From positions 1-38,200 of IMG/VR virus record IMGVR_UViG_2703719355_000022: a DNA stretch of 38,200 nt; one strand, written 5' to 3'. Numbering within the stretch: the first letter of the stretch is position 1; the number at the start of each line of letters is the position of its first letter. This document shows, one piece after another, positions 1 to 37,929 of the stretch. Source of the stretch: a virus (taxonomy: Duplodnaviria; Heunggongvirae; Uroviricota; Caudoviricetes). The position numbers were made by a program, and so were the translations under genes. Under the pieces are notes generated by a model that had not been told where the DNA came from, did not search any database, and worked only from the letters and a program-made list of their open reading frames with translations.

Positions 1-124
1 TATCGAATCGTAATTATGTGCAGATGATTCGGCAGTCTATATCAGTTGTTAAAAATGACAACTTTTCGTTAACTGTAATTAAACCATCACCAGCGATAAC
101 TCTTTGCCAAGCGCCTTTGCCGCA

Positions 125-159
<35 letters not shown>

Positions 160-234
160 GTTAAATAGGCGAGTAATCTCCTGTTTAGGTTTGCCTAATA
201 TAATGCCCCCACAATAACACGAGGGGGTACAACA

Positions 235-507
235 ATGAACATCGGTAAAGCAATCATCAACTACGCAGCACGTCGCAACATGGACATTACCTTGATTGAC
301 GATGAGACCGTGGCGTTCTGGGAAGCGGATAACGATTGTGAATGGATGTTCTCCTACATGATTGGTAATGATGGTTTCCTCCACTTTAAAGGGAATGTGT
401 ATCTGCCGCAGGATATTAAAGAAGAATTACCAGCGTGCATCGATACAGACAAGAAGCTGAAAGAAGTAATCAACTTTATCGCTAAAGAGTTTATCAGCAA
501 GAAGTAA
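235..507 (+). CDS. hypothetical protein (90 aa)
   Basis: ORF with ATG at 235 preceded by GAGGGGG ribosome-binding motif; no recognisable domain. Confidence 0.5.
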   Translation: MNIGKAIINYAARRNMDITLIDDETVAFWEADNDCEWMFSYMIGNDGFLHFKGNVYLPQDIKEELPACIDTDKKLKEVINFIAKEFISKK

Positions 508-944
508 TGTCTAATTTGGCGGGTACTATTCCCGCCGATTTAAACGGAATACAGACAATGTTCAATATTATGACTCGTAAATTTGGTGAGATGACTTTCG
601 AGAAAGCTGGTGTTGCTCGTACCGAAGAAGAAGCAATGGCCTTAGTTCTGGTAGCACTGAGATCATCAACTGAGATTATCGACGCTGAATATGTAGCCGC
701 AGAAGGTGAGATTAACGAGGTTAAAGCGGTGGCTAAGGAATTAGGTGTTAAAGGTTTCCGTAAGCTGAGACTATCCCGCGAGTCATATGTAATTGGTAAG
801 CAAGGACAATACCTAGATGAGAATACCGTGATTGTTCTACTGAATAAGATTACCCGCTACGGTTGGAAGATTGAGCAATATAAAACGTGTTTCGAATTAT
901 ACGAAAAAGGTTTGCTGGATACTCTGACCATCGTTCGCGCTTAA
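507..944 (+). CDS. hypothetical protein (145 aa; true start may be ATG at 558)
   Basis: ORF whose ATG overlaps the upstream TAA (TAATG); a hairpin repeat element covers the first codons so a downstream start is possible; no recognisable domain. Confidence 0.45.
   Translation: MSNLAGTIPADLNGIQTMFNIMTRKFGEMTFEKAGVARTEEEAMALVLVALRSSTEIIDAEYVAAEGEINEVKAVAKELGVKGFRKLRLSRESYVIGKQGQYLDENTVIVLLNKITRYGWKIEQYKTCFELYEKGLLDTLTIVRA
510..536 (+). repeat. intercistronic hairpin repeat copy 1 (TCTAATTTGGCGGGTACTATTCCCGCC)
   Basis: Stem GGCGGG/CCCGCC with 7-nt loop directly after the TAA of ORF 235-507; near-identical copy at 951-977. Confidence 0.6.
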
Positions 945-950
945 TTAATT

Positions 951-977
951 TCTAATTTGGTGGGTGTAATTCCCGCC
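951..977 (+). repeat. intercistronic hairpin repeat copy 2 (TCTAATTTGGTGGGTGTAATTCCCGCC)
   Basis: Same 27-nt element with stem GGTGGG/CCCGCC, located directly after the TAA of ORF 507-944. Confidence 0.6.
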
Positions 978-1073
978 CTATTCAACCATGAAATTATTAG
1001 AGCTACTTATTCTTAGCATTTTAGCGCGTTTTTTCTCGCTGTTTATATTGTTGTTATTGTTTAGGAGAATCAA

Positions 1074-1199
1074 ATGAAACAGTTTCATGATGGTATTTCA
1101 TCTAAGACATTCAAGAAAGAATATAGCGGAGCGTGTATTAACTGGAGTGATTTAATTGGAGCGGTTGTGTTTGGTCTGGTAATTAGCATTAACTTTTAA
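1074..1199 (+). CDS. small hydrophobic peptide (41 aa, MKQFHDGISSKTFKKEYSGACINWSDLIGAVVFGLVISINF)
   Basis: Not in the ORF track (below its size cutoff); ATG at 1074 with AGGAG 6 nt upstream; C-terminal hydrophobic stretch LIGAVVFGLVISINF; followed by hairpin plus T-run at 1214-1250. Confidence 0.4.
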   Translation: MKQFHDGISSKTFKKEYSGACINWSDLIGAVVFGLVISINF

Positions 1200-1213
1200 T
1201 CTTTAATCACCTA

Positions 1214-1250
1214 GCCCCTATCGTTATAATACGCGGTAGGGGCGTTTTTG
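1214..1250 (+). terminator. putative rho-independent terminator (stem GCCCCTA/TAGGGGC then TTTTT)
   Basis: Inverted repeat 1214-1220 / 1237-1243 followed by T-run 1245-1249; the loop is large so strength is uncertain. Confidence 0.45.
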
Positions 1251-1262
1251 TTTGGAAATGGT

Positions 1263-2942
1263 ATGAAAACTAAACTGTATTCGTATATTCGCTTCTCTTC
1301 AATGAAGCAAGCGGATGGTAGTTCTTATGAACGCCAAAAGAGAACAGCCGCAGAGATAGCCGCAAAATATGACCTTGAACTGGTTACAAGCTATCAGGAT
1401 TTTGGTGTATCTGCATTCAAAGGGGCTAACAGTAGAACAGGTGCATTATCTCGTTTTCTGGATGAGATTGGTCGATCTATTCCGGTTGGTAGCTGGCTGG
1501 TTGTGGAAAACTTGGACCGTATCTCTCGCCAATCCATCATTGAAGCACAAGAGCTATTTCTCTCGATTATCCGTAGGGGAATAACTATCGTAACTGGCAT
1601 GGATGGTAAGGTCTATAGCAAGGAATCGGTTAATGCCAATCCTATTGATTTGCTATTGAGTGTCATGTTGTTTGCGAGAGCTAACGAGGAAAGCCAGACT
1701 AAGCGCAATCGTACTAACTCAAGCGCACTGATTAAGATTAAAGCTCATCAAGAAAATCCACAAAATCCGGCTGTTGCAATCGAGGAAATTGGAAAGAATA
1801 TGTGGTGGACTGATACCACTTCCGGTTATGTGTGTCCCGATCCGGTCTTCTTCCCTATTGTTCAGGAGGTTGTGGAATTACGCAGGAATGGACGGTCTAC
1901 CGCCGAGATACTGGATCACCTTAACGCGACATATACACCACCACCAGCCGCAAGTCACAAGAGGCATTCAAACTGGTCACGAGCAATGATTGAAAGGTTG
2001 TTCCATACCCGCGCTTTGATTGGTATCAAGGAAATCTCTGTAGATGGCGTTAAGTATGAGTTAAAGGATTATTACCCTCGTGTGCTAGATGACGCTGAGT
2101 TTTATCACCTTAAGAAAAGCATTGGTGTTAGAGCATGTAACTATGGAGACAAAGAAGAAGCTAAACCGATCCCCCTGCTTAGTGGTGTTAATCTGCTGAA
2201 ATGTGAACATTGCGGTTCCGCTATGGTTAAGGTGAAAGGAACTAACAAACGTCCTAACCAATATCGTTATTCATGCGATGCAATGCGCTCTAGTCGTATT
2301 GCATGTGTGCATACAAACTGGAGTTTTCGAGGTGATCAATTAGAGAAAGCTGTATTGCAATTGCTGGCTGATAAAATCTGGATTGCTGAGGATAAGGCTA
2401 ATCCGGTTCCGGCTTTGAAAGTACAGATTGATGAAATATCACGCAAGATTGATAACCTGATTACCCTTTCTGCTATGACAGGAGCAACGAAGGAGTTAGC
2501 CGACCAGATTACTACCCTCAATAGCGAGCGTGAAACACTCTACAATCAGATTAAGATGGCAGAAGAGGAAATGTATTCTGTGGACTCTCAAGGCTGGGAG
2601 AAGCTCGCAGAATTTGATTTAGAAGATGTTTATAACGAGGATCGCATTAAGGTCCGGTTTAAGATTAAGCAAGCTCTAAAACGGATCGGGTGTAGCAGGA
2701 TTGACAAATACAAAAACTTGTTTGTACTGGAATACATTGATGGTAAGACCCAGAGAGTTGTAATAGAAAATTCAAGAGGACCGAGGAAAGGCCGGATCTT
2801 CGTTGATTTGAAGACCATCAATGATAGGCAGATTCTGGAGAGTAACGGGCTTGTTTTGCATCCATGTTTAGACATGCTGACAGATAAGAACTGGAAACCA
2901 GAAGAGGAAATACCAGGTCCATTACAGGAATTTGGAATTTAA
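1263..2942 (+). CDS. large serine recombinase (integrase/resolvase family)
   Basis: N-terminal resolvase-type catalytic motif YSYIRFSSMKQ...RQ, about 560 aa, Cys-rich zinc-ribbon-like segment CEHCGS...YRYSCDAMRSSRIACVH, C-terminal coiled coil; first ATG at 1263 (track start at 1248 is TTG). Confidence 0.85.
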   Translation: MKTKLYSYIRFSSMKQADGSSYERQKRTAAEIAAKYDLELVTSYQDFGVSAFKGANSRTGALSRFLDEIGRSIPVGSWLVVENLDRISRQSIIEAQELFLSIIRRGITIVTGMDGKVYSKESVNANPIDLLLSVMLFARANEESQTKRNRTNSSALIKIKAHQENPQNPAVAIEEIGKNMWWTDTTSGYVCPDPVFFPIVQEVVELRRNGRSTAEILDHLNATYTPPPAASHKRHSNWSRAMIERLFHTRALIGIKEISVDGVKYELKDYYPRVLDDAEFYHLKKSIGVRACNYGDKEEAKPIPLLSGVNLLKCEHCGSAMVKVKGTNKRPNQYRYSCDAMRSSRIACVHTNWSFRGDQLEKAVLQLLADKIWIAEDKANPVPALKVQIDEISRKIDNLITLSAMTGATKELADQITTLNSERETLYNQIKMAEEEMYSVDSQGWEKLAEFDLEDVYNEDRIKVRFKIKQALKRIGCSRIDKYKNLFVLEYIDGKTQRVVIENSRGPRKGRIFVDLKTINDRQILESNGLVLHPCLDMLTDKNWKPEEEIPGPLQEFGI

Positions 2943-2978
2943 GCGGCCTAAATCGACGTATAACGAGCTAAAACAGTT

Positions 2979-3008
2979 AAGGGGTACAGATGTACCCCTT
3001 TTTAATTT
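2979..3008 (+). terminator. rho-independent terminator after the recombinase gene
   Basis: GGGGTAC-AGAT-GTACCCC hairpin followed by TTTTTAATTT. Confidence 0.65.
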
Positions 3009-3218
3009 AATTGCGTTAGGCAGCGTAAGCAAGTTTCATAGTAGTTTCCTCTAAAATAATAAGTTCACTACTATTTATCAGAGAAAATTGTCTTACTATT
3101 GCATTCTCTATCTGGATGTGGGTATAGGCGGGATTGAATACGGCAAAACTGAAACATTCCACTACTGCAATAAATCACTAAACAATATAAAGAATATTGC
3201 AAGTGTGGAGTGGAACTA

Positions 3219-4709
3219 ATGCAAGATATTAAAATTCATTTTCAAGATTACAGTTTCGTTAAGGTTGATTGCTCTCCTTCTATCGGAATGGAATTAAGAG
3301 ATTATTTCTCGTTTGAGGTTGAAGGGGCTAGGTTTAGCCCCCGTTACAAGTATTCTGGCTGGGATGGACGAATAAGACTGTTTACGCATGAAAACACCCT
3401 ACCAATTGGACTATTAAAAACGTTGGGTGTCTTTGTTAAAAATATGGGCTATTCAGTCTGGATTGACCCGCGATTGCTTGAGAAGGAAGATGTAACCAAA
3501 GACGCGATTAATGAATGGATTGATTCCCTAGAAGTGTATTCCGGTTCCAATAAAATCAATCCTTACTGGTATCAGCGTGAAGCAGTCTTTCTGGGTATTC
3601 ATAATCGCCGTAGAATGCTGGTTCTTCCTACCAGTGCCGGAAAGTCATTGATTGCTTGTATGCTGTCTCGCTGGTACTTAGAGCATTACACCGGAAAAAT
3701 TCTAATCATTGTTCCGACTACATCGCTAGTGGTTCAAATGAGGGATGATTTCATCGATTATAGGCTATTCCCTTATGAAGCAATTCATACAATGATGAGT
3801 GGTAGCGGGAAACATCCGGGAGATAGGCTAATCACTGTTTCAACATGGCAATCAGCTTGCAAGATGCCTCCTGAATGGTTCCGACAATATGGAATGTTGA
3901 TAGTTGATGAATCACATAAGGCTAGTGCCAAAAATATTACCAATATCATCAATGGAATGAATCATTGCCAGTTCAAAATCGGTATGACTGGTTCCCCGAA
4001 AGAATCAAAATGCCATTTAATGCAGTATGTCGGGCTTTTCGGTGATATTTCTAAGATCGTTAGCATTGACCGCCTGATGGAAGAAGGTCAAGTGACGAAA
4101 CTGAAAATCAACTGTCTTTTCCTTCGTTATACCGATGAGGAATGTAGCGCGGTTAAGGGTAGAGAATATGCGGAAGAGATCAAGTATATTACGTCTAACC
4201 CACGACGTAATAAGTTTGCTTGTAATTTGGCGCTAAAACTCGCTAAGAAGGGCGAAAACGTATTCCTGATGTTCCGCAATACTAAGCACGGAAAACTTAT
4301 GTATGATGCGTTACAGAAGGTACACGACAAGGTTTATTATATTGACGGTGGAGTTAAGACAGAAGAACGAGACGAGTTCAAAAAATTAGCGGAAGGGGAA
4401 ACAGGGATCATTTGCGTTGCATCCTATGGTGTGTTCTCTACTGGTGTTTCTATCAAGAACTTGCACCATGTTATTTTCGGGCATCCAGTTAAAGAATCAA
4501 CCATTGTTAGACAGAGTATCGGTCGTGCATTGCGCAAACATGGTTCTAAGGATATTGCTACCGTTTGGGATCTTATAGATCATCTGTGTATATTCGGTCG
4601 TAACGGAAAAATCAAGCATAAAAATTATGCGGTAAAACATGCACTTGAGAGAATCCGCTATTATTTGACCGACAAGTTCAGCTATGCAACTAAAACAATT
4701 GCTATATAA
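3219..4709 (+). CDS. uvsW: UvsW-like superfamily-2 DNA helicase
   Basis: N-terminus MQDIKIHFQDYSFVKVDCS...GWDGRIRL and motifs LVLPTSAGKS (Walker A-like), IVDESH (DExH), VASYGVFSTG, WDLIDH match my recollection of T4 UvsW along the whole length; ATG at 3219 with GGAG upstream. Confidence 0.85.
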   Translation: MQDIKIHFQDYSFVKVDCSPSIGMELRDYFSFEVEGARFSPRYKYSGWDGRIRLFTHENTLPIGLLKTLGVFVKNMGYSVWIDPRLLEKEDVTKDAINEWIDSLEVYSGSNKINPYWYQREAVFLGIHNRRRMLVLPTSAGKSLIACMLSRWYLEHYTGKILIIVPTTSLVVQMRDDFIDYRLFPYEAIHTMMSGSGKHPGDRLITVSTWQSACKMPPEWFRQYGMLIVDESHKASAKNITNIINGMNHCQFKIGMTGSPKESKCHLMQYVGLFGDISKIVSIDRLMEEGQVTKLKINCLFLRYTDEECSAVKGREYAEEIKYITSNPRRNKFACNLALKLAKKGENVFLMFRNTKHGKLMYDALQKVHDKVYYIDGGVKTEERDEFKKLAEGETGIICVASYGVFSTGVSIKNLHHVIFGHPVKESTIVRQSIGRALRKHGSKDIATVWDLIDHLCIFGRNGKIKHKNYAVKHALERIRYYLTDKFSYATKTIAI

Positions 4710-4744
4710 CAAAAAAAGCGCCCACTAGAGGCGCTTTAATTTTA
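4710..4744. terminator. bidirectional rho-independent terminator between convergent helicase and endolysin genes
   Basis: AGCGCC-7 nt loop-GGCGCT hairpin flanked by an A-run upstream and a T-rich run downstream. Confidence 0.6.
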
Positions 4745-5095
4745 TCCATGCCAGCGTGATTTTTTTGACCTGCTGTCGATGTGTGTAAAGGTTTTATATT
4801 TGCCTAAGCCGTATTGATTAGGATATTTCCCGTCAAGATAAGCATGGACAATATCAGGCGAGACGCCTTTCACTACAATATCAACCGCACGGCCTCGAAC
4901 ATGGTAGCTATTGGTTGCACCGCCTACATTCTTGTTATGAGTCGGACAACGGTTCCCGCTGTTAATAATTACTGGTTTCCCGAAGTGTTCGCGTACATCC
5001 TCAAGAATTACCAGCAGTTCAGCGTCGATAGTATCATAATCACATTTTCCGCATTTACATTTAAATTCCTTGCGAGAAAAATGCTTGCTTAACAT
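4742..5095 (-). CDS. peptidase M15-family cell-wall hydrolase (putative endolysin)
   Basis: Motifs HFSRKEF, SGNRCPTHN, SYHVRGRAVD and FTHID typical of zinc D-Ala-D-Ala carboxypeptidase-like phage lysins; first ATG at 5095 preceded by AAGGGGG (track start at 5131 is TTG). Confidence 0.6.
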   Translation of the reverse strand: MLSKHFSRKEFKCKCGKCDYDTIDAELLVILEDVREHFGKPVIINSGNRCPTHNKNVGGATNSYHVRGRAVDIVVKGVSPDIVHAYLDGKYPNQYGLGKYKTFTHIDSRSKKSRWHG

Positions 5096-5105
5096 ATTAC
5101 CCCCT

Positions 5106-5453
5106 TTAGATGTATTGCATAAGATACCCAATAAATCTGAGTCCCTTAATGTAATAAGGTGCTGTGCCTATGCATACCGCTCGTGCATCACCAATACAAT
5201 TGAAGTTGTAAGGGTTAACTACATCAATCTCCTGCCCTACACGGAAGCGGTATTTAGGACGTTTAGCGAGTGTCGCAACACAAAACACTAACCCATTACC
5301 ATCATCGCGGATCATTTGCTTGAATTGTTTATGCTTTACTCTCTTCGCCTCGTAATCAAGTGTCATTGATTCAGGGCTAATGCCATTGATAAAAATACCG
5401 GAAAGCTGGTCGACCGGATAAGTAGGAAATTCAGTGAAAATATTTTTAGCCAT
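5106..5453 (-). CDS. hypothetical protein (115 aa)
   Basis: ORF with GGGGG ribosome-binding motif 5 nt upstream of the ATG; no recognised domain. Confidence 0.45.
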   Translation of the reverse strand: MAKNIFTEFPTYPVDQLSGIFINGISPESMTLDYEAKRVKHKQFKQMIRDDGNGLVFCVATLAKRPKYRFRVGQEIDVVNPYNFNCIGDARAVCIGTAPYYIKGLRFIGYLMQYI

Positions 5454-16693: not shown

Positions 16694-19600
16694 TTATTTA
16701 GTTGCTTTGAGTTCGGCAATCTCTTTAGTCAATGCTTCAATCTTAGCTTGATATTTGACGTCCATTTCCTGAATAGCTTTAATAATCAAGGCATTAACAG
16801 CAGAGTTAGAAATAGTCTTAATTGCTTCTGGATTTTCTGGATCTTCGGTGGATTGAATACCTACTGCTTCCGGCAATACTTCTTCCAGATCCTGAGCAAT
16901 AATACCGACTTCGCGTTTAATCACACTACGATCTTTAAGAGACTTAACTTTATCGTATGAGTAGACTTTCAGGGAGTTTACTTTCTCTAAAGCATCATCT
17001 TTTAATTCTTCCAGATTAACTTTCAGACGACGGTCCGAACGAATGTAAACATCGTTAAAGCTACCGTTACGACCTGCGGTAAAGTCACCAGCAGCGTTAA
17101 AGTCAAAGTTAGTATCATGAACATGGAGACGCACAAGAGCGTTACCGATAGTACCGCTAGGAACATGTACACCCATTGCTGCGATATGATATTTACCTTG
17201 ATGGGTTGCTTTCCATACGTTATGAGCGGAATCGGTTGATTGTTGACAGTCGACCTGAATACCAGAAGCACGATCACGCCAGCTAGCCCAACTACCACCA
17301 GCAACGCTACCACGAATAAGACCATTACCGCCACCGGATACAGTGCCCGTTTCAAGGTGAATCATCTTACCGCCGAATTTCCAGACTTCGGTTTGTTTCT
17401 CACCGCGCATACGCATAACGCCAGCATCATCGCAGTACAACAGACCCAATTCTAAGCCATTTGGATCTCTAAACCACAAATGCTTATTGCCACTGCGACG
17501 AAACTCAATATCAGCACCGTTAAGCGTGATATTACCGCCAGTGTGAATTGCTTTAGGTTTAACAGTACCGTTGATGGCAAACTCGATTAATTCAGTACCC
17601 GGACCGCCCGGTCGTTGTGTGTACCAGTGCCAACCGCTTTCGTCCGCACATTCGAATACTTGTTTACGAGCATCAGCACCCCACGCACGGATATTAAAGC
17701 TAGAAGTAGCTGTATTTTTGCCCCACGTTAATTTTCCTTCGGTAGTTAAATCCCCTCGGAAATGAGCAAGCAAACCACCAGATCCGTTACGTTCAGTGGT
17801 AAAGTGAGTTCCGCTAGTGTCCTGGAATTGCAAAACGTTATATCGGTTAGCGTTACTATTCCCCCAATGGTTAATCGTGAAAGAATCCATTGACTGATTC
17901 CCACCAGCAGAGAAAGTAAGCAATCCTTTTTCTAAGAATACGTTATTACTAAAGCGAGCAGCACGGCTATCTCTTTCAAGAATTAATGCACCTTCGTTAC
18001 CATCACCACCTAAAGTAACTTTACCATTTGTCAAATCGTAAATGAATGGTCGGTTTCCGTTCCACCCGCCCAATTTATCATTTTCGGCAGTAGAAAGAAG
18101 ATAAACTTTAGTGCCGTCATTACGCCAGAATGCACCATAATTACCGTAGATCATGCGGTAGGCGTCGCTATTCATTGAGATGAATTGAGCGTTAGTATAA
18201 ACTCGTTTTGTTCTACCAGTTGCAAGTTCGATCTGTCCGTCGATGTGGTGACGAATAGAAGTACCACCTACATCACTATACCATTCAAAAACGTTAGTAT
18301 CAGCATTACCATAACCGATCCACCCTTGACGGGTAATATCTCCAGTCCGATTATCTTGAAACGCAATATGGTTGGATTGACCAGCAGGACGCCGCAAGGT
18401 AATAACATTACTACCGCCACCTAACATCATTCGACCAGAAAGAATATTACCTTTATGAGTCCCAGCAATAGAGCTACTAGATTCAACGGTTAGAATCTCC
18501 TGAGCATCAGTGCTACCAGTAGCCAGACGATAACTGGAACCTTGAACCGTCTCATGCCAGATCATTTCATTATAGTTACTGCGGAATTTACGAATATATT
18601 TCCGACCAGTACCTTTATCATTACTTAGATGAACAATGTCATAGCTGTTTTGTGTGTTGTCGTCAAAACTCAACACACCACGTTTATTTTCTGTGTTAAA
18701 AAGAGTTACGTTGCGACCACCGATAACACCAACGGAAGGTTTAATTAACGTGGCTTCCGGCGTATCATAAACCGTCAAACTTACATAAACAGATTTCCCA
18801 TATTCGACAATAACGTTATCGGTATAACGCTGATATTTCACGTAGATATCATAGTTATCACCGGAAGTATTGACAGCAAATACCTCAAAATCTTTGTTTG
18901 TATTTCTACGGTATGCAATTACGTTAAGACCTTTAGGTCTATCGTTACCACTACGGAGAAGAATTTCTACTACATCAACTTGGTCATATGCCGTAACGTT
19001 GTAACCATTACCACCATGAATACGGAAAAACACACTACGCCCGTTTTGTGGAATTGTTGCGGTTGCCAATTTGAAATATGCAGATACGTTTTCGCTAGAA
19101 TTGGGAACAGACATAACGACGTTTTTAACAAACATCTTATCAACTTCGGCTTTGGTGTATGCACCAATCTCGCCAGGAGTCGGCTTATCACCTTCGTGAT
19201 ACATTTTATAGCTAAAGTCCTTCTGTCCTTCTCTATCAAAACCATAGGTTTCAACACGAGATCCACCAGACGCATAACGGAAAGTAAATCCGCGACCGTG
19301 CGCTTTACCGGCAGAATGAGGAACATTAAGAGTTAGATCTAAAAGACCATCTTGTTCATTAGTTCGGAAAGCACCAAAGTAATTAAGATCTCGTGATGTC
19401 TGGTCTTCCAGATAGTTAGCTGTCTTGCTTAACAGATACCCACCATGCTTAGTATTGGTATTCTTCTTGATGTAAAGAGCATCGTTGCTACCTTCAATAC
19501 CATCAATTCGACGGTTAGCGGCTGCAATCGCTGAATCAGTAGCTGATTTATTCTGGTCAACCTTGTTGTTAATGGCGGTGTGGTTGCTATTAACAGTGTT

Positions 19601-20305
19601 GGTTAAGTTGGTGATCTTCGTATCAGCATCGACCTTGTTATCGGATACAACCTTTTCGATTGCGGTCTTATTCGCCGCTACTGTCCCACTAAGGTTATTA
19701 ATTTTTGTGTCCGCGTCTTTCTTATTGGAAGTCACTGTAGCGGTTAAATTGCTAACGTTGGTGTTAGTGGTATTGACCTTGTTGTTTATTGCGGTATTGT
19801 TGTCCGCGACCGTCTTTGATAAAGCTGCGTGTTTACTATCGGCATCAGATTTATTCTGGTCGACCTTTGTGTTAATAGCGGTATGGTTGCTACTTACGGT
19901 CCCACTAAGATTATTAATTTTGGTGTCAGCATCGACCTTGTTATCACTAACCACTTTGGTCAAATTGCTAACGTTGGTATTAGTAGCATCAATGCGCTTA
20001 TTGGTCGCTGTATCTTTCGTGGTAATAGTCTGATTCAGTTCAGCTTTAGCACTAGCCAGATTATTAGCGGCCTCTTGTTTGTTGGAAGCAATAACACGGT
20101 CAGTGCTAGTTTTGTTATTGTCTACTTTCGTGTTTAAAGCATTATGACTTTCTGGGGAAACGCTGATTTGAACTACTGCGTTATTTTTGTCTTTGGTGTA
20201 AATTACATGGTCTGCCATCTGAATAGCGATTTCACCGACCTGTAATTGTTCTGGCGTTGGCTTTTTACCAGCCGTCTGTGTGCGTTTAAATTGGATAGAC
20301 TCCAT
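16694..20305 (-). CDS. tail fiber protein with C-terminal intramolecular chaperone (peptidase S74-like) domain, 1203 aa
   Basis: N-terminal tandem ~44-aa repeats (NTNVSNLT...DADTKINNLSGTV...); C-terminal segment DRRLKVNLEEL...VGIIAQDLEEVLPEAV resembles auto-cleaving chaperone domains of phage fibers. Confidence 0.8.
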   Translation of the reverse strand: MESIQFKRTQTAGKKPTPEQLQVGEIAIQMADHVIYTKDKNNAVVQISVSPESHNALNTKVDNNKTSTDRVIASNKQEAANNLASAKAELNQTITTKDTATNKRIDATNTNVSNLTKVVSDNKVDADTKINNLSGTVSSNHTAINTKVDQNKSDADSKHAALSKTVADNNTAINNKVNTTNTNVSNLTATVTSNKKDADTKINNLSGTVAANKTAIEKVVSDNKVDADTKITNLTNTVNSNHTAINNKVDQNKSATDSAIAAANRRIDGIEGSNDALYIKKNTNTKHGGYLLSKTANYLEDQTSRDLNYFGAFRTNEQDGLLDLTLNVPHSAGKAHGRGFTFRYASGGSRVETYGFDREGQKDFSYKMYHEGDKPTPGEIGAYTKAEVDKMFVKNVVMSVPNSSENVSAYFKLATATIPQNGRSVFFRIHGGNGYNVTAYDQVDVVEILLRSGNDRPKGLNVIAYRRNTNKDFEVFAVNTSGDNYDIYVKYQRYTDNVIVEYGKSVYVSLTVYDTPEATLIKPSVGVIGGRNVTLFNTENKRGVLSFDDNTQNSYDIVHLSNDKGTGRKYIRKFRSNYNEMIWHETVQGSSYRLATGSTDAQEILTVESSSSIAGTHKGNILSGRMMLGGGSNVITLRRPAGQSNHIAFQDNRTGDITRQGWIGYGNADTNVFEWYSDVGGTSIRHHIDGQIELATGRTKRVYTNAQFISMNSDAYRMIYGNYGAFWRNDGTKVYLLSTAENDKLGGWNGNRPFIYDLTNGKVTLGGDGNEGALILERDSRAARFSNNVFLEKGLLTFSAGGNQSMDSFTINHWGNSNANRYNVLQFQDTSGTHFTTERNGSGGLLAHFRGDLTTEGKLTWGKNTATSSFNIRAWGADARKQVFECADESGWHWYTQRPGGPGTELIEFAINGTVKPKAIHTGGNITLNGADIEFRRSGNKHLWFRDPNGLELGLLYCDDAGVMRMRGEKQTEVWKFGGKMIHLETGTVSGGGNGLIRGSVAGGSWASWRDRASGIQVDCQQSTDSAHNVWKATHQGKYHIAAMGVHVPSGTIGNALVRLHVHDTNFDFNAAGDFTAGRNGSFNDVYIRSDRRLKVNLEELKDDALEKVNSLKVYSYDKVKSLKDRSVIKREVGIIAQDLEEVLPEAVGIQSTEDPENPEAIKTISNSAVNALIIKAIQEMDVKYQAKIEALTKEIAELKATK

Positions 20306-20379
20306 TGAATCACCTCACTATAAAACAGGAATAAGGGAGGCGTTAACCTCCCCGCGTCATGTTTTATTTAGGAAGTGAA

Positions 20380-21213
20380 TCAATACTCCCCGAAATCGAC
20401 TCTATCAGTTTTAGCCACTGCCCCGATCTCGGCGGGAGTTGGCTTTTCATGTTCACTAAAAACCTTCACCCATCGAGATTGACCACCTTTCTGGATAGTT
20501 CGGACACGCAAACGAGGATCACCCGCAGTGGTACATGTTAGTTGCCAACCACCGTCTTCATTTGGCTGTAAATGCAATAGTGATGTATCGGATGAGAACG
20601 GGTTGCTACCAGCGGTTCCCTTGTAGGTTACGAAACGGTTTCCTGCTAATGCCTCGCTATCAATACCCCCTGTAAACGGGCTAATTCCAGCGCCTACGCC
20701 AAAGTCCCCTTGTCGAATGAGTTTTCCCTCGGTCGCTATACCCCTTGCTAGAATCCCGCCATCTGGTTCAAGTTTAAATTCCAGTGTTACAGCTTTGTTA
20801 TCTGCGCCACGGGTTTTGTGACTAGTGACATAAGCGTCATAGATGACATAGTAACCAGTGTTAGCAGCACTATAGCCAGAGTTCACAACATAGAACATAC
20901 GGAAGCGTAAAGGTGTTTTATCCTCTACCGCTTTCATCAACATTGCTTGATGTTCATCGTCAAGAACACGGTTTAATGTGAGTGTTGTCGGTTCCAGTCT
21001 ACGATAACCAGCAAGTTTCCCCGTAGCGTCCTGATCGTACTCTTCCAGAGTTTCAATCTCTGTGGATTCGGTTAGCGTAGGGAATGCTGCGACGTTCTCA
21101 ATAGAACTAAAACTAGGATCGAAAAAGTCGACCTGATTGTCTATCTGGTTAGAGATCGACACTTCAACATGTGATCCAGTGAAAATATCTAAGTTATCAT
21201 GTGTAATATTCAT
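20380..21213 (-). CDS. virion structural protein with fiber-like C-terminal motif, 277 aa
   Basis: Located between head-tail genes and the fiber gene; C-terminal HEKPTPAEIGAVAKTD motif also occurs twice in the fiber protein. Confidence 0.4.
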   Translation of the reverse strand: MNITHDNLDIFTGSHVEVSISNQIDNQVDFFDPSFSSIENVAAFPTLTESTEIETLEEYDQDATGKLAGYRRLEPTTLTLNRVLDDEHQAMLMKAVEDKTPLRFRMFYVVNSGYSAANTGYYVIYDAYVTSHKTRGADNKAVTLEFKLEPDGGILARGIATEGKLIRQGDFGVGAGISPFTGGIDSEALAGNRFVTYKGTAGSNPFSSDTSLLHLQPNEDGGWQLTCTTAGDPRLRVRTIQKGGQSRWVKVFSEHEKPTPAEIGAVAKTDRVDFGEY

Positions 21214-21222
21214 TATTACCCC

Positions 21223-21651
21223 TTAAAAACGCGCTAGATAAGAAAATTTAAGGCTAAGTGTCCCAACGATACCCCCATCACTAGAATCATCGTCATAATC
21301 GGTATTAGAAGCTACTGGAGTGATATCTGAAATAGAGAAGCCCAAATCTTTAAATCGTGGGTTATCCGGCTGAATCTGGATTATCTGGCAAATACCCTCA
21401 TGGATTTTTGTTTCATGAATCTGAGAATATAATTGCATTTCGATAACGCATTCAGCTTGCATTGCATTACCACCACGAACACGCGTATAAGTTTCATTCA
21501 TGCCAGTAATCCAACAAACCACGTCATCACTAAAGCCTTGCTGAGTTTGTTCTACGTTTAAAGCCAGACCTAGATCTTGTTCGATAATATCCTGTAAAGC
21601 ACGTTTAATCTTAAGACGTGGCATATTATTAACGGTAGCGAGCATGTGCAC
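21223..21651 (-). CDS. putative head-tail joining / tail completion protein, 142 aa
   Basis: Position downstream of capsid gene; overlaps upstream ORF by 23 nt; no motif confirmed. Confidence 0.35.
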   Translation of the reverse strand: MHMLATVNNMPRLKIKRALQDIIEQDLGLALNVEQTQQGFSDDVVCWITGMNETYTRVRGGNAMQAECVIEMQLYSQIHETKIHEGICQIIQIQPDNPRFKDLGFSISDITPVASNTDYDDDSSDGGIVGTLSLKFSYLARF

Positions 21652-37169: not shown

Positions 37170-37197
37170 TTGACACTGATCCGGTCATCAATATAAT
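37170..37197 (+). promoter_or_regulatory. consensus sigma70 promoter (TTGACA-16-TATAAT) upstream of the lipoprotein gene
   Basis: -35 at 37170-37175, -10 at 37192-37197; GGAGG ribosome-binding motif before ATG at 37314. Confidence 0.6.
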
Positions 37198-37313: not shown

Positions 37314-37886
37314 ATGTTTAAAAAGATTGGTGTTATTGCTGCGGTTGTTCTGTTATCTGGTTGTGCGTCTATGGCTGAACTTGAAAAGCGTAGTGATGGT
37401 CTTTCGGCTTATCCTGGCATCAAGTATGAACAGTTTCAGGGGTATGAGATTGTAAGTAGCTATACAACTACAAAGGCAACTCGCCCATATAACAAACTTA
37501 AAATGCAATCCTGTCTCTATGACACTGTGCGTAATGACATTATGGTGCATACTGACGCATTCAATGAGATTAAAGATTTAGAAACTGGTGGTCGTATTGT
37601 TGAACGCGCCCGTTCTAATAGTGCTATTTTTAGTGGCAACTTCGAGCAAACTATTACCTTGCGTACTATTGTAGGTGACACTCCCTATACTCAATATGTG
37701 AAGTATAAAGGTATTGCTTTACCGTCCGGTGATAAGACACAGTTCACATTTACCGGATTGAGTGTTAAGCCTAAATCTGGTGGCGAGCATCCACTATGGT
37801 CACGTAAAACAAATAGCCCAGAAGAAAGTATTAAAGAACTTGATAAGCTGGCGGATGAGATTGCCGATTGTCTTAATGATGAATAA
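37314..37886 (+). CDS. lipoprotein (signal peptide with lipobox LLSGC), 190 aa
   Basis: N-terminus MFKKIGVIAAVVLLSGCAS: basic n-region, hydrophobic core, lipobox Cys; no Asp at +2; own promoter and terminator. Confidence 0.7.
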   Translation: MFKKIGVIAAVVLLSGCASMAELEKRSDGLSAYPGIKYEQFQGYEIVSSYTTTKATRPYNKLKMQSCLYDTVRNDIMVHTDAFNEIKDLETGGRIVERARSNSAIFSGNFEQTITLRTIVGDTPYTQYVKYKGIALPSGDKTQFTFTGLSVKPKSGGEHPLWSRKTNSPEESIKELDKLADEIADCLNDE

Positions 37887-37903: not shown

Positions 37904-37929
37904 AGCCTCGCTAAATGCGGGGCTTTTTT
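37904..37929 (+). terminator. rho-independent terminator after the lipoprotein gene
   Basis: AGCCTCGC-TAAAT-GCGGGGCT hairpin followed by TTTTTT. Confidence 0.6.

Follow-up and report, generated by a model that had tools for sequence, protein, structure and literature searches.

A conserved 41-codon gene beside the serine integrase of an Escherichia coli prophage family encodes a putative tail-anchored peptide

The stretch of DNA analysed here (38,200 nt, positions 1 to 38,200 of the IMG/VR virus record IMGVR_UViG_2703719355_000022, Caudoviricetes; hereafter the window) is, over 1-38200, essentially one whole ~38-kb prophage of Escherichia coli, with hicB as its insertion site. An open reading frame (ORF) of 41 sense codons, which we name p40, lies in the short prophage arm that runs from the left attachment junction (attL) to the integrase gene. 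It extends from ATG 1074 to TAA 1197-1199 (1074-1199), is read towards the integrase gene, and its product is MKQFHDGISSKTFKKEYSGACINWSDLIGAVVFGLVISINF; genes and signals described below lie, like p40, on the plus strand unless the minus strand is named. We are highly confident, from sequence comparison, that p40 is a real coding gene, and the same comparison shows selection to act on its amino-acid sequence rather than on the RNA or the DNA. It is a core gene of an enterobacterial prophage family that integrates by means of a large serine recombinase, and it represents a small-protein family that is new but of a generally familiar kind, belonging to one prophage lineage and present in E. coli and at least two other host lineages. 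Taken as a whole, the observations are best explained by a translated, tail-anchored core micro-gene whose product would be an early membrane or lysogeny factor, a reading to which we give about an even chance.

Results

Selection on the p40 protein

The p40 frame was compared across 41 independent loci: besides the window, these are seven E. coli loci from RefSeq, eight contigs from Logan and 25 from IMG/VR. The Logan contigs stem from two host lineages other than E. coli, in which ycdY shares 78.5% and ~60% identity with its E. coli counterpart. The frame is intact at 40-41 amino acids (aa) in 41/41 loci, which hold 22 nucleotide versions and 14 peptide variants, and no length difference occurs other than an in-frame indel of 3 nt. 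Each of the five other frames is interrupted by stops in every one of the 22 nucleotide versions, so that the p40 frame alone is open throughout. Pairwise ratios of nonsynonymous to synonymous substitution (dN/dS) are 0.07-0.31, with synonymous sites saturated between lineages, and the differences in codons 1-15 are synonymous only, including a TCT to AGC serine switch. Residues 1-15 are the same across lineages whose integrase is 68-71% and whose helicase is ~72% identical, the head of p40 thus being more conserved than either of these adjacent proteins. Because the frame is kept in every locus, dN/dS is low and the changes in the head are all synonymous, we conclude that selection acts on the protein. 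An earlier reading of the DNA made without database searches (the sequence-only reading) had named conservation of the frame in relatives as a check on the ORF, and the frame is indeed kept, under purifying selection.

The link with the integrase gene is equally constant. p40 was present in 25/25 integrase-anchored IMG/VR loci having intact upstream DNA, it lies 55-1315 nt upstream of the integrase gene in all loci while the neighbouring genes vary, and it persists where the integrase is 68-71% and ycdY 60-79% identical. By itself, the ORF is unremarkable: when the 318-nt gap 945-1262 was shuffled with its composition kept, an ATG-initiated ORF of at least 41 codons arose in 15% of cases (0.5% when a Shine-Dalgarno (SD)-like pentamer was also required), and the case for p40 therefore rests on conservation. 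No paralogue of p40 was found within the window.

Among 5.8 billion proteins, a word-indexed search picked out ten of 40-41 aa and one 68-aa fusion, some of them E. coli entries named 'hypothetical protein'. When the alignment of these proteins was used as query in a filter-only HMMER search of 1.84 billion representative proteins clustered at 50% identity, only nine clusters of 39-41 aa were recovered, with one 90-aa miscall among them; all nine carry M[KR]QFH[DEQ]GISSKT[FY] followed by a hydrophobic tail. p40 had no match above noise in Pfam, NCBIfam, PHROGs, PADLOC, the PDB profile library or Rfam, and the family libraries gave nothing above noise for the neighbouring small proteins, including the micro-ORF p26 described below. 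On plasmids, tblastn with p40 gave no match, and a pattern scan derived from the peptide alignment confirmed no relatives in species-representative genomes. Among GenBank phages, blastn of positions 900-1300 found no match and tblastn of the p40 peptide only spurious nrdA matches (E = 4); the whole element resembles no GenBank phage record, and this prophage type is absent from that collection.

p40 is usually overlooked by annotation pipelines, as the sequence-only reading had expected of such a small ORF. None of the 7/7 RefSeq relatives inspected has a coding sequence (CDS) at p40, although it is entered as a 'hypothetical protein' in a small number of GenBank records. Proteins of this size are systematically missed, and here one of them is among the most conserved elements of a prophage family.

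Translation signals and the downstream hairpin

An SD motif AGGAG (1063-1067), situated within the 3' end of the upstream micro-ORF, is separated from the ATG by the 6-nt spacer AATCAA (1068-1073). SD-like motifs occupy the same place in relatives (GGGGTGAG, AAGGAG, AAGGAAG and GGAAGGGAG), the strong AGGAG being peculiar to the lineage of the window. In all loci, however, the p40 start either overlaps the stop of the preceding ORF (ATGA) or trails it by 3-11 nt. This stop-start coupling is shown by the sequence comparison to be the constant feature of p40 loci, and p40 is the last core cistron of an operon.

Downstream, an intrinsic-terminator-like hairpin with its T-run occupies 1214..1253; the stem (1214-1243) has 11 pairs, seven of them G-C, the loop contains TTATAAT and the T-run reads GTTTTTGTTT. 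The element, with which the operon ends, begins 14 nt past the p40 stop and stops 9 nt ahead of the integrase start, and it is kept in relatives, with stem changes that, judged by eye, are apparently compensatory. The loop holds a perfect TATAAT (1225-1230), also seen in most relatives, the locus L013 excepted (L numbers designate individual loci); a weak integrase promoter could be concealed in the hairpin, with this TATAAT as its -10 element.

Most of what the sequence-only reading had described at this place stands. The position of AGGAG 6 nt before ATG 1074 is exact, and the hairpin with T-run after the ORF is there. The strong ribosome-binding site is a property of the lineage of the window, whereas the overlap of stop and start is universal, and the small ORF that it singled out is a genuine gene but not a lone one: it is the final core gene of a coupled operon in which p26 is also encoded.

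A conserved head and a hydrophobic tail

The peptide begins with a polar, net-positive head encoded by codons 1-15 (1074-1118), MKQFHDGISSKTFKK, which is the same in the E. coli and the L006-L010 loci. Codons 27-41 (1152-1196) specify a hydrophobic C-terminal helix, predicted to be a membrane anchor from hydropathy, charge and AlphaFold2. In the window, residues 27-41 are an uncharged 15-residue run and the best 19-residue Kyte-Doolittle mean is 1.84. Throughout the family an uncharged run of 15-24 residues extends up to the C-terminus, the 19-residue Kyte-Doolittle value is 1.75-2.24 in all members, and the part before the tail has a net charge of +1 to +4. The sequence of the tail is variable yet hydrophobic, with G34, L35 and S38-I39-N40 kept. 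AlphaFold2, run with the family alignment, places a helix at 24-40, with block-mean predicted local distance difference test scores (pLDDT) of 83-93. The polar N-terminus and membrane-helix-like C-terminus noticed in the sequence-only reading are thus both recovered.

A single C-terminal hydrophobic helix with positive charge on its N-terminal side is the layout of the tail-anchored class. We think it somewhat probable, from sequence and structure prediction, that p40 is membrane-anchored with its N-terminus inside. The combination of an invariant head and a variable, always hydrophobic tail suggests that the head is the working end. Furthermore, the head sequences suggest binding to something that hardly changes across host genera.

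The p26 micro-ORF and the rest of the operon

The ORF that precedes p40 in the window (988-1077, 29 codons) ends in a TGA that overlaps the p40 ATG (ATGA). It is the window version of what we name p26, a conserved hydrophobic micro-ORF of ~26 residues, too short for gene callers and found upstream of p40 at every locus. In relatives (L003 2445-2525; L006 5924-6004; L007 5700-5780; L008 5739-5819; L011 2071-2148; L013 5515-5595) p26 consists of 25-26 wholly hydrophobic residues, for example MSVLISFASAVFITILSFVYMVVNAA, with a conserved S/T/S/Y..VV pattern. It is always stop-start coupled to whichever gene comes next, and its uncorrected ratio of nonsynonymous to synonymous differences (pN/pS) is 0.24-0.75. 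At 1019-1022 the window has a run of four T where L001 and L002 have five, with the result that its p26 frame is shifted and lacks the conserved ...AVYIVVIV end.

In the protein P0004, from an ENA contig of 747 nt, a TGA to TGG change has joined p26 and p40 in frame into a natural fusion of 68 aa. In L003-type loci the two share a frame with only TGA-GCA between them, and stop-codon read-through could also yield a fusion there. The P0004 fusion is a weak hint that p26 and p40 work together; its structure, predicted from the single sequence, is a generic helical hairpin.

The operon starts with orf90 (235-507) and orf145 (507-944), which match the PHROGs phrog_6147 and phrog_14908 and occur in variable combinations in relatives. 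After the stops of both genes (509-535 and 951-977) stands the repeat TCTAATTTGG with a 6-bp GC hairpin (GGCGGG/CCCGCC and GGTGGG/CCCGCC) that has -10-like hexamers in its loops. In L003-L005 the same repeat hairpin, there followed by a T-run and terminator-like, lies just ahead of p26. This repeat may mark cassette boundaries.

Additional genes are found on both sides of p40. Between p26 and p40, relatives can carry a gene for a 62-aa cytoplasmic or a ~75-aa secreted protein. Between p40 and the terminator, many E. coli prophages carry cargo encoding secreted proteins of 75-139 aa, a 113-aa membrane protein or a 348-aa T5orf172-like protein, with the junction exactly at a TTTAA microhomology at the p40 stop. 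In 32/41 loci p40 and the terminator are 0.3-1.3 kb apart, with cargo in the form of genes (one or two) or of IS911 in between, which marks this slot as a cargo-insertion hot spot (1197-1213 in the window, compared with L002-L006 and L015-L039). Where cargo is present, a small AT-rich palindrome, GATATAAATATATC, follows p40. In L001, the E. coli RMDEC332 locus and the closest complete-genome relative, IS911 (20302-21470) sits between p40 and integrase, inside the terminator hairpin. The layout of the window, its version of p26 followed by p40, terminator and int, is minimal, and the most distant relatives have the same.

Promoters at the two prophage ends

No plus-strand promoter-like site was detected in 1-3400, a region that includes everything from attL to the integrase gene. 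Only ~40 nt of phage DNA lie between the attL junction and orf90, and the genes at the other end of the prophage point towards attR. From this proximity, the missing promoter and the direction of the right-end genes, it follows that the operon is probably transcribed across attP in the circular genome and silenced by integration.

Just upstream of orf90 there is a hairpin at 205-227 (CCCCC...GGGGG, replaced by GTACCC...GGGTAC in relatives). The ribosome-binding site of orf90 lies in its 3' arm, and a -10-like TATAAT is found at the att junction itself (199-204); with these elements at the junction, the promoter context of the operon would differ between the integrated and the circular state.

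At the right prophage end, a moron gene (37314-37886) encodes a 190-aa lipoprotein with an LSGC lipobox. It is preceded by the promoter TTGACA-16-TATAAT (37170-37197), matching the sigma-70 consensus at 12/12 positions, and followed by a terminator (37904-37924), after which comes a 76-aa gene reading towards attR. The lipoprotein gene has a perfect promoter and its own terminator, whereas p40 has a terminator only.

The prophage and its relatives

The left end of the prophage is marked by the 3' remnant of the host gene hicB on the minus strand (79-195; feature listed 79..205), identified from the annotation of RefSeq relatives and by junction comparison; in those relatives a truncated hicB is annotated 40 nt upstream of orf90. 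The attL junction was placed at ~195-205 by comparison with ycdX-integrated relatives, and the window ends with the stop codon of the last phage gene. The region is matched by 57/5,426 complete E. coli chromosomes at 85-99% identity, the family thus being present in ~1% of complete E. coli genomes. Annotated relatives are prophages of ~39 kb that occupy the antitoxin gene hicB in some strains and ycdX in others; relatives with an integrase ~87% identical use the ycdX site. E. coli BS74R-D has two prophages of the family, one in ycdX and one in hicB, whose integrases are 87% identical and whose p40 protein is the same. We found nothing relevant in the literature on hicB or ycdX integration with a serine recombinase.

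The integrase is a large serine recombinase (1263-2942; Pfam Resolvase, Recombinase and Zn_ribbon_recom; PHROG 95, integrase). A role for p40 as its recombination directionality factor, which would bind the integrase and turn it towards excision, is suggested by the strict linkage of the two genes but is made unlikely by the hydrophobic tail. Further on, a UvsW-type helicase gene (3210-4709, plus strand) and the gene of a 1203-aa tail fibre (16694-20305, minus strand) show ~80% nucleotide identity to uvsW and gene 37, respectively, of the lytic T4-like phages RB49 and Phi1. These uvsW-like and gp37-like genes are the only ones of the window to match GenBank phages (T4-like), and some relatives also have a UvsY gene. 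The likeness, seen at the sequence level, points to gene exchange between the temperate phage and T4-like lytic phages. The endolysin gene (4742-5131, minus strand; Peptidase_M15_3, PHROG 894) belongs to the late operon.

Discussion

How could such a peptide act? We propose that ribosomes would reach p40 in two ways, through its own ribosome-binding site and by reinitiation after terminating on the upstream ORF. The C-terminal 15-20 uncharged residues would then anchor the tail in the inner membrane, and the invariant, positively charged N-terminal 15-25 residues would stay in the cytoplasm and engage a partner highly conserved across host genera. p40 probably works with p26, cargo having presumably been inserted between and after the pair. 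Integration would sever the operon from everything upstream of attP, and its expression would mainly take place while the genome is a circle, either on infection or once the prophage has excised. In this scheme p40 would be an early factor, acting on the host membrane or in the establishment of lysogeny, and not a conversion gene expressed in the lysogen; this specific timing and role we put forward tentatively.

A more precise version can be imagined, in which p26 and p40 form a two-peptide inner-membrane module of the integration/lysogeny arm, made only while the genome is circular, with the head of p40 acting on a conserved host machine (e.g. FtsH, in the manner of lambda CIII) and biasing the lysogeny decision or the stability of an integration factor. 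We see a slim chance that this version is right. If it were, serine-integrase phages would have a regulator of a new class. Should the link with the integration arm prove functional, a new kind of player would join the regulation of large serine integrases, of which little is understood in Gram-negative prophages. p26 and p40 offer a testable candidate pair for temperate-phage micro-proteins at the inner membrane.

Several points weigh against the reading of p40 as a tail-anchored early factor. The N-terminal half of the peptide is poorly modelled (block-mean pLDDT 53-54). In the window the apolar core has only 13-15 residues, which is short for a classical membrane span, and on the Hessa scale the sum for the 19-residue span is unfavourable, at +4.2 kcal/mol. 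With such a core and such an energy a true membrane span is not assured, and the tail could instead be a peripheral anchor or a protein-protein interface. The promoter scan sees only near-consensus sigma-70 sites, so that a weak or activator-dependent promoter could drive expression in the lysogen. Moreover, transcription reading across attP would be curbed by the terminator that follows the right-end lipoprotein gene. The frameshift in the window p26 implies either that p40 works without p26 or that this copy is partly defective. Finally, the family is narrow (nine clusters at 50% identity), and its conservation thus reflects one phage lineage.

The first alternative is that p40 is an inner-membrane peptide expressed in the lysogen for conversion or superinfection exclusion, one that keeps out the DNA of other phages or inhibits an envelope enzyme of the host, much like HK97 gp15 or D3 Iap. 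The sequence-only reading had also listed exclusion among the possible roles, and small membrane peptides in conversion and exclusion roles are documented (PMC3594210, PMC4815439). The position of p40 would suit this role, as it is at a prophage end among envelope-directed genes (signal-peptide proteins, an OmpW/Ail-like beta-barrel and a transmembrane protein in the operon of relatives), and a lipoprotein moron stands at the opposite end. However, no family member lacks p40, and a promoter of its own is missing, whereas morons occur sporadically and as self-contained units (PMC3594210). The BS74R-D double lysogen carries the identical p40 protein twice; its own kind was therefore not effectively excluded, which weakens the idea of exclusion within the family. 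Furthermore, an invariant cytoplasmic head is more in keeping with a conserved target inside the cell than with a phage tail or receptor, which evolve fast. On balance, we regard this alternative as doubtful.

The second alternative is a toxin: p40, alone or with p26, would depolarise the membrane as a type I-like effector of abortive infection or addiction. In size and in its hydrophobic helix p40 does resemble toxins of the Hok, TisB, Ibs and Ldr types, p26 is wholly hydrophobic like Ibs or ShoB, and a position next to the integrase would suit stabilisation of the prophage. Nevertheless, the opposite strand shows no promoter-like site inside the p40 ORF or directly after it, the sole nearby minus-strand site (1045-1018) pointing away from p40. 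Rfam revealed no antisense or small-RNA family, only a sub-threshold STnc180 match at 3150-3243, and the saturation of synonymous sites indicates that no overlapping RNA is under constraint. The sequence-only reading had named toxins in general; a classical antisense-controlled toxin is unlikely because both the antisense promoter or RNA and conservation at the nucleotide level are missing. p40 is also translationally coupled in an operon and not a tightly repressed stand-alone unit, and its strongest constraint falls on the polar head, not on the helix. We consider a toxin of any of these kinds rather unlikely.

The short distance between p40 and the hairpin raises another question. Could p40 be a cis-acting leader peptide that tunes termination and, with it, read-through into the integrase gene? 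Its stop is 12-15 nt from the base of the conserved terminator directly ahead of the integrase gene in the window and in L007-L013, and no promoter of its own is recognisable for the integrase gene. However, the cargo that splits p40 from the terminator in 32/41 loci leaves p40 unchanged. Folding of 1040-1275 yields the terminator only, with no significant alternative structure (z = -1.5 against shuffles). In addition, p40 has no run of regulatory codons, and the conserved hydrophobicity of its tail would be needless in a leader peptide, all of which makes this role improbable.

A part in lysis timing, as a holin, antiholin or spanin-like component, would be compatible with a small phage peptide having one hydrophobic helix, and the sequence-only reading had mentioned a lysis modulator. 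This is very improbable, because the endolysin gene and its neighbours are 3.5 kb away on the opposite strand, p40 being placed with the integration module. Holins typically carry a charged C-terminal tail, whereas p40 ends in a hydrophobic run (...VISINF) without one. Last, that p40 is an untranslated chance ORF whose conservation stems from a DNA or RNA element, an idea favoured by the frequency of such ORFs in the shuffled gap and by the omission of p40 from most RefSeq annotation, is already refuted by the comparative data, namely the frame kept in every locus with dN/dS well below 1, the switches between serine codon families, the in-frame indel, the stops in the other frames and the SD-like motifs found before p40 in unrelated upstream contexts.

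Relation to known small phage proteins

Returning to p40 as a putative membrane-anchored early factor, three phage proteins are useful for comparison. Morons are self-contained accessory transcription units that occur sporadically in prophages, and HK97 gp15 is a moron-encoded inner-membrane superinfection-exclusion protein of the YebO family, from the tail operon (PMC3594210). p40 itself does not belong among the morons, as its unit has a terminator only and no promoter of its own, and as its presence (41/41 and 25/25 loci) is not sporadic. gp15 and p40 are alike in being small, prophage-encoded, predicted to lie in the E. coli inner membrane and of a size that annotation overlooks. They differ in that p40 is a core gene next to the integrase, lacks its own promoter, matches no Pfam or NCBIfam model and occurs twice, in identical form, in one double lysogen.

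Iap, a small peptide of the Pseudomonas phage D3, inhibits the O-antigen alpha-polymerase of the host (PMC4815439, PMC3594210). It offers a case of a very small phage peptide acting on a host inner-membrane machine and stemming from a multi-gene accessory cassette of a temperate phage, as we propose for p40. However, Iap is accompanied by wzy-beta and oac, whereas p40 has no neighbours of this sort. To our knowledge, Iap has no conserved cytoplasmic head such as that of p40. p40 shows no similarity to the families of the searched libraries, and it is by description, not by direct comparison, that we set it apart from Iap.

Lambda CIII is a 54-aa protein, both inhibitor and substrate of the membrane protease FtsH (PMC1838920). 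It might be the closest analogy for a possible action of p40, being a small, conserved, early peptide made from a transcript that runs towards the integration genes and acting on a conserved protein of the host at the cytoplasmic face of the inner membrane. Yet CIII uses an amphipathic helix where p40 has a C-terminal hydrophobic anchor, the two have no sequence similarity, and no CII-like partner was identified at the p40 locus. A link between p40 and FtsH, drawn from this analogy, is purely speculative.

In structure, p40 recalls the type I toxins. These proteins (Hok/Gef, TisB, Ibs, Ldr, ShoB, ZorO) have fewer than 60 aa and one hydrophobic helix, and several are encoded in prophages; they go with an antisense RNA, a promoter of their own and tight translational repression. 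None of these hallmarks of control was seen for p40, and its most constrained part is the polar head. As a candidate type I toxin-antitoxin system, the locus has the small hydrophobic ORF, and the computational search found no antisense or divergent RNA. By analogy, then, HK97 gp15, D3 Iap and lambda CIII would be the nearest functional analogues of p40, and the type I toxins its nearest structural ones.

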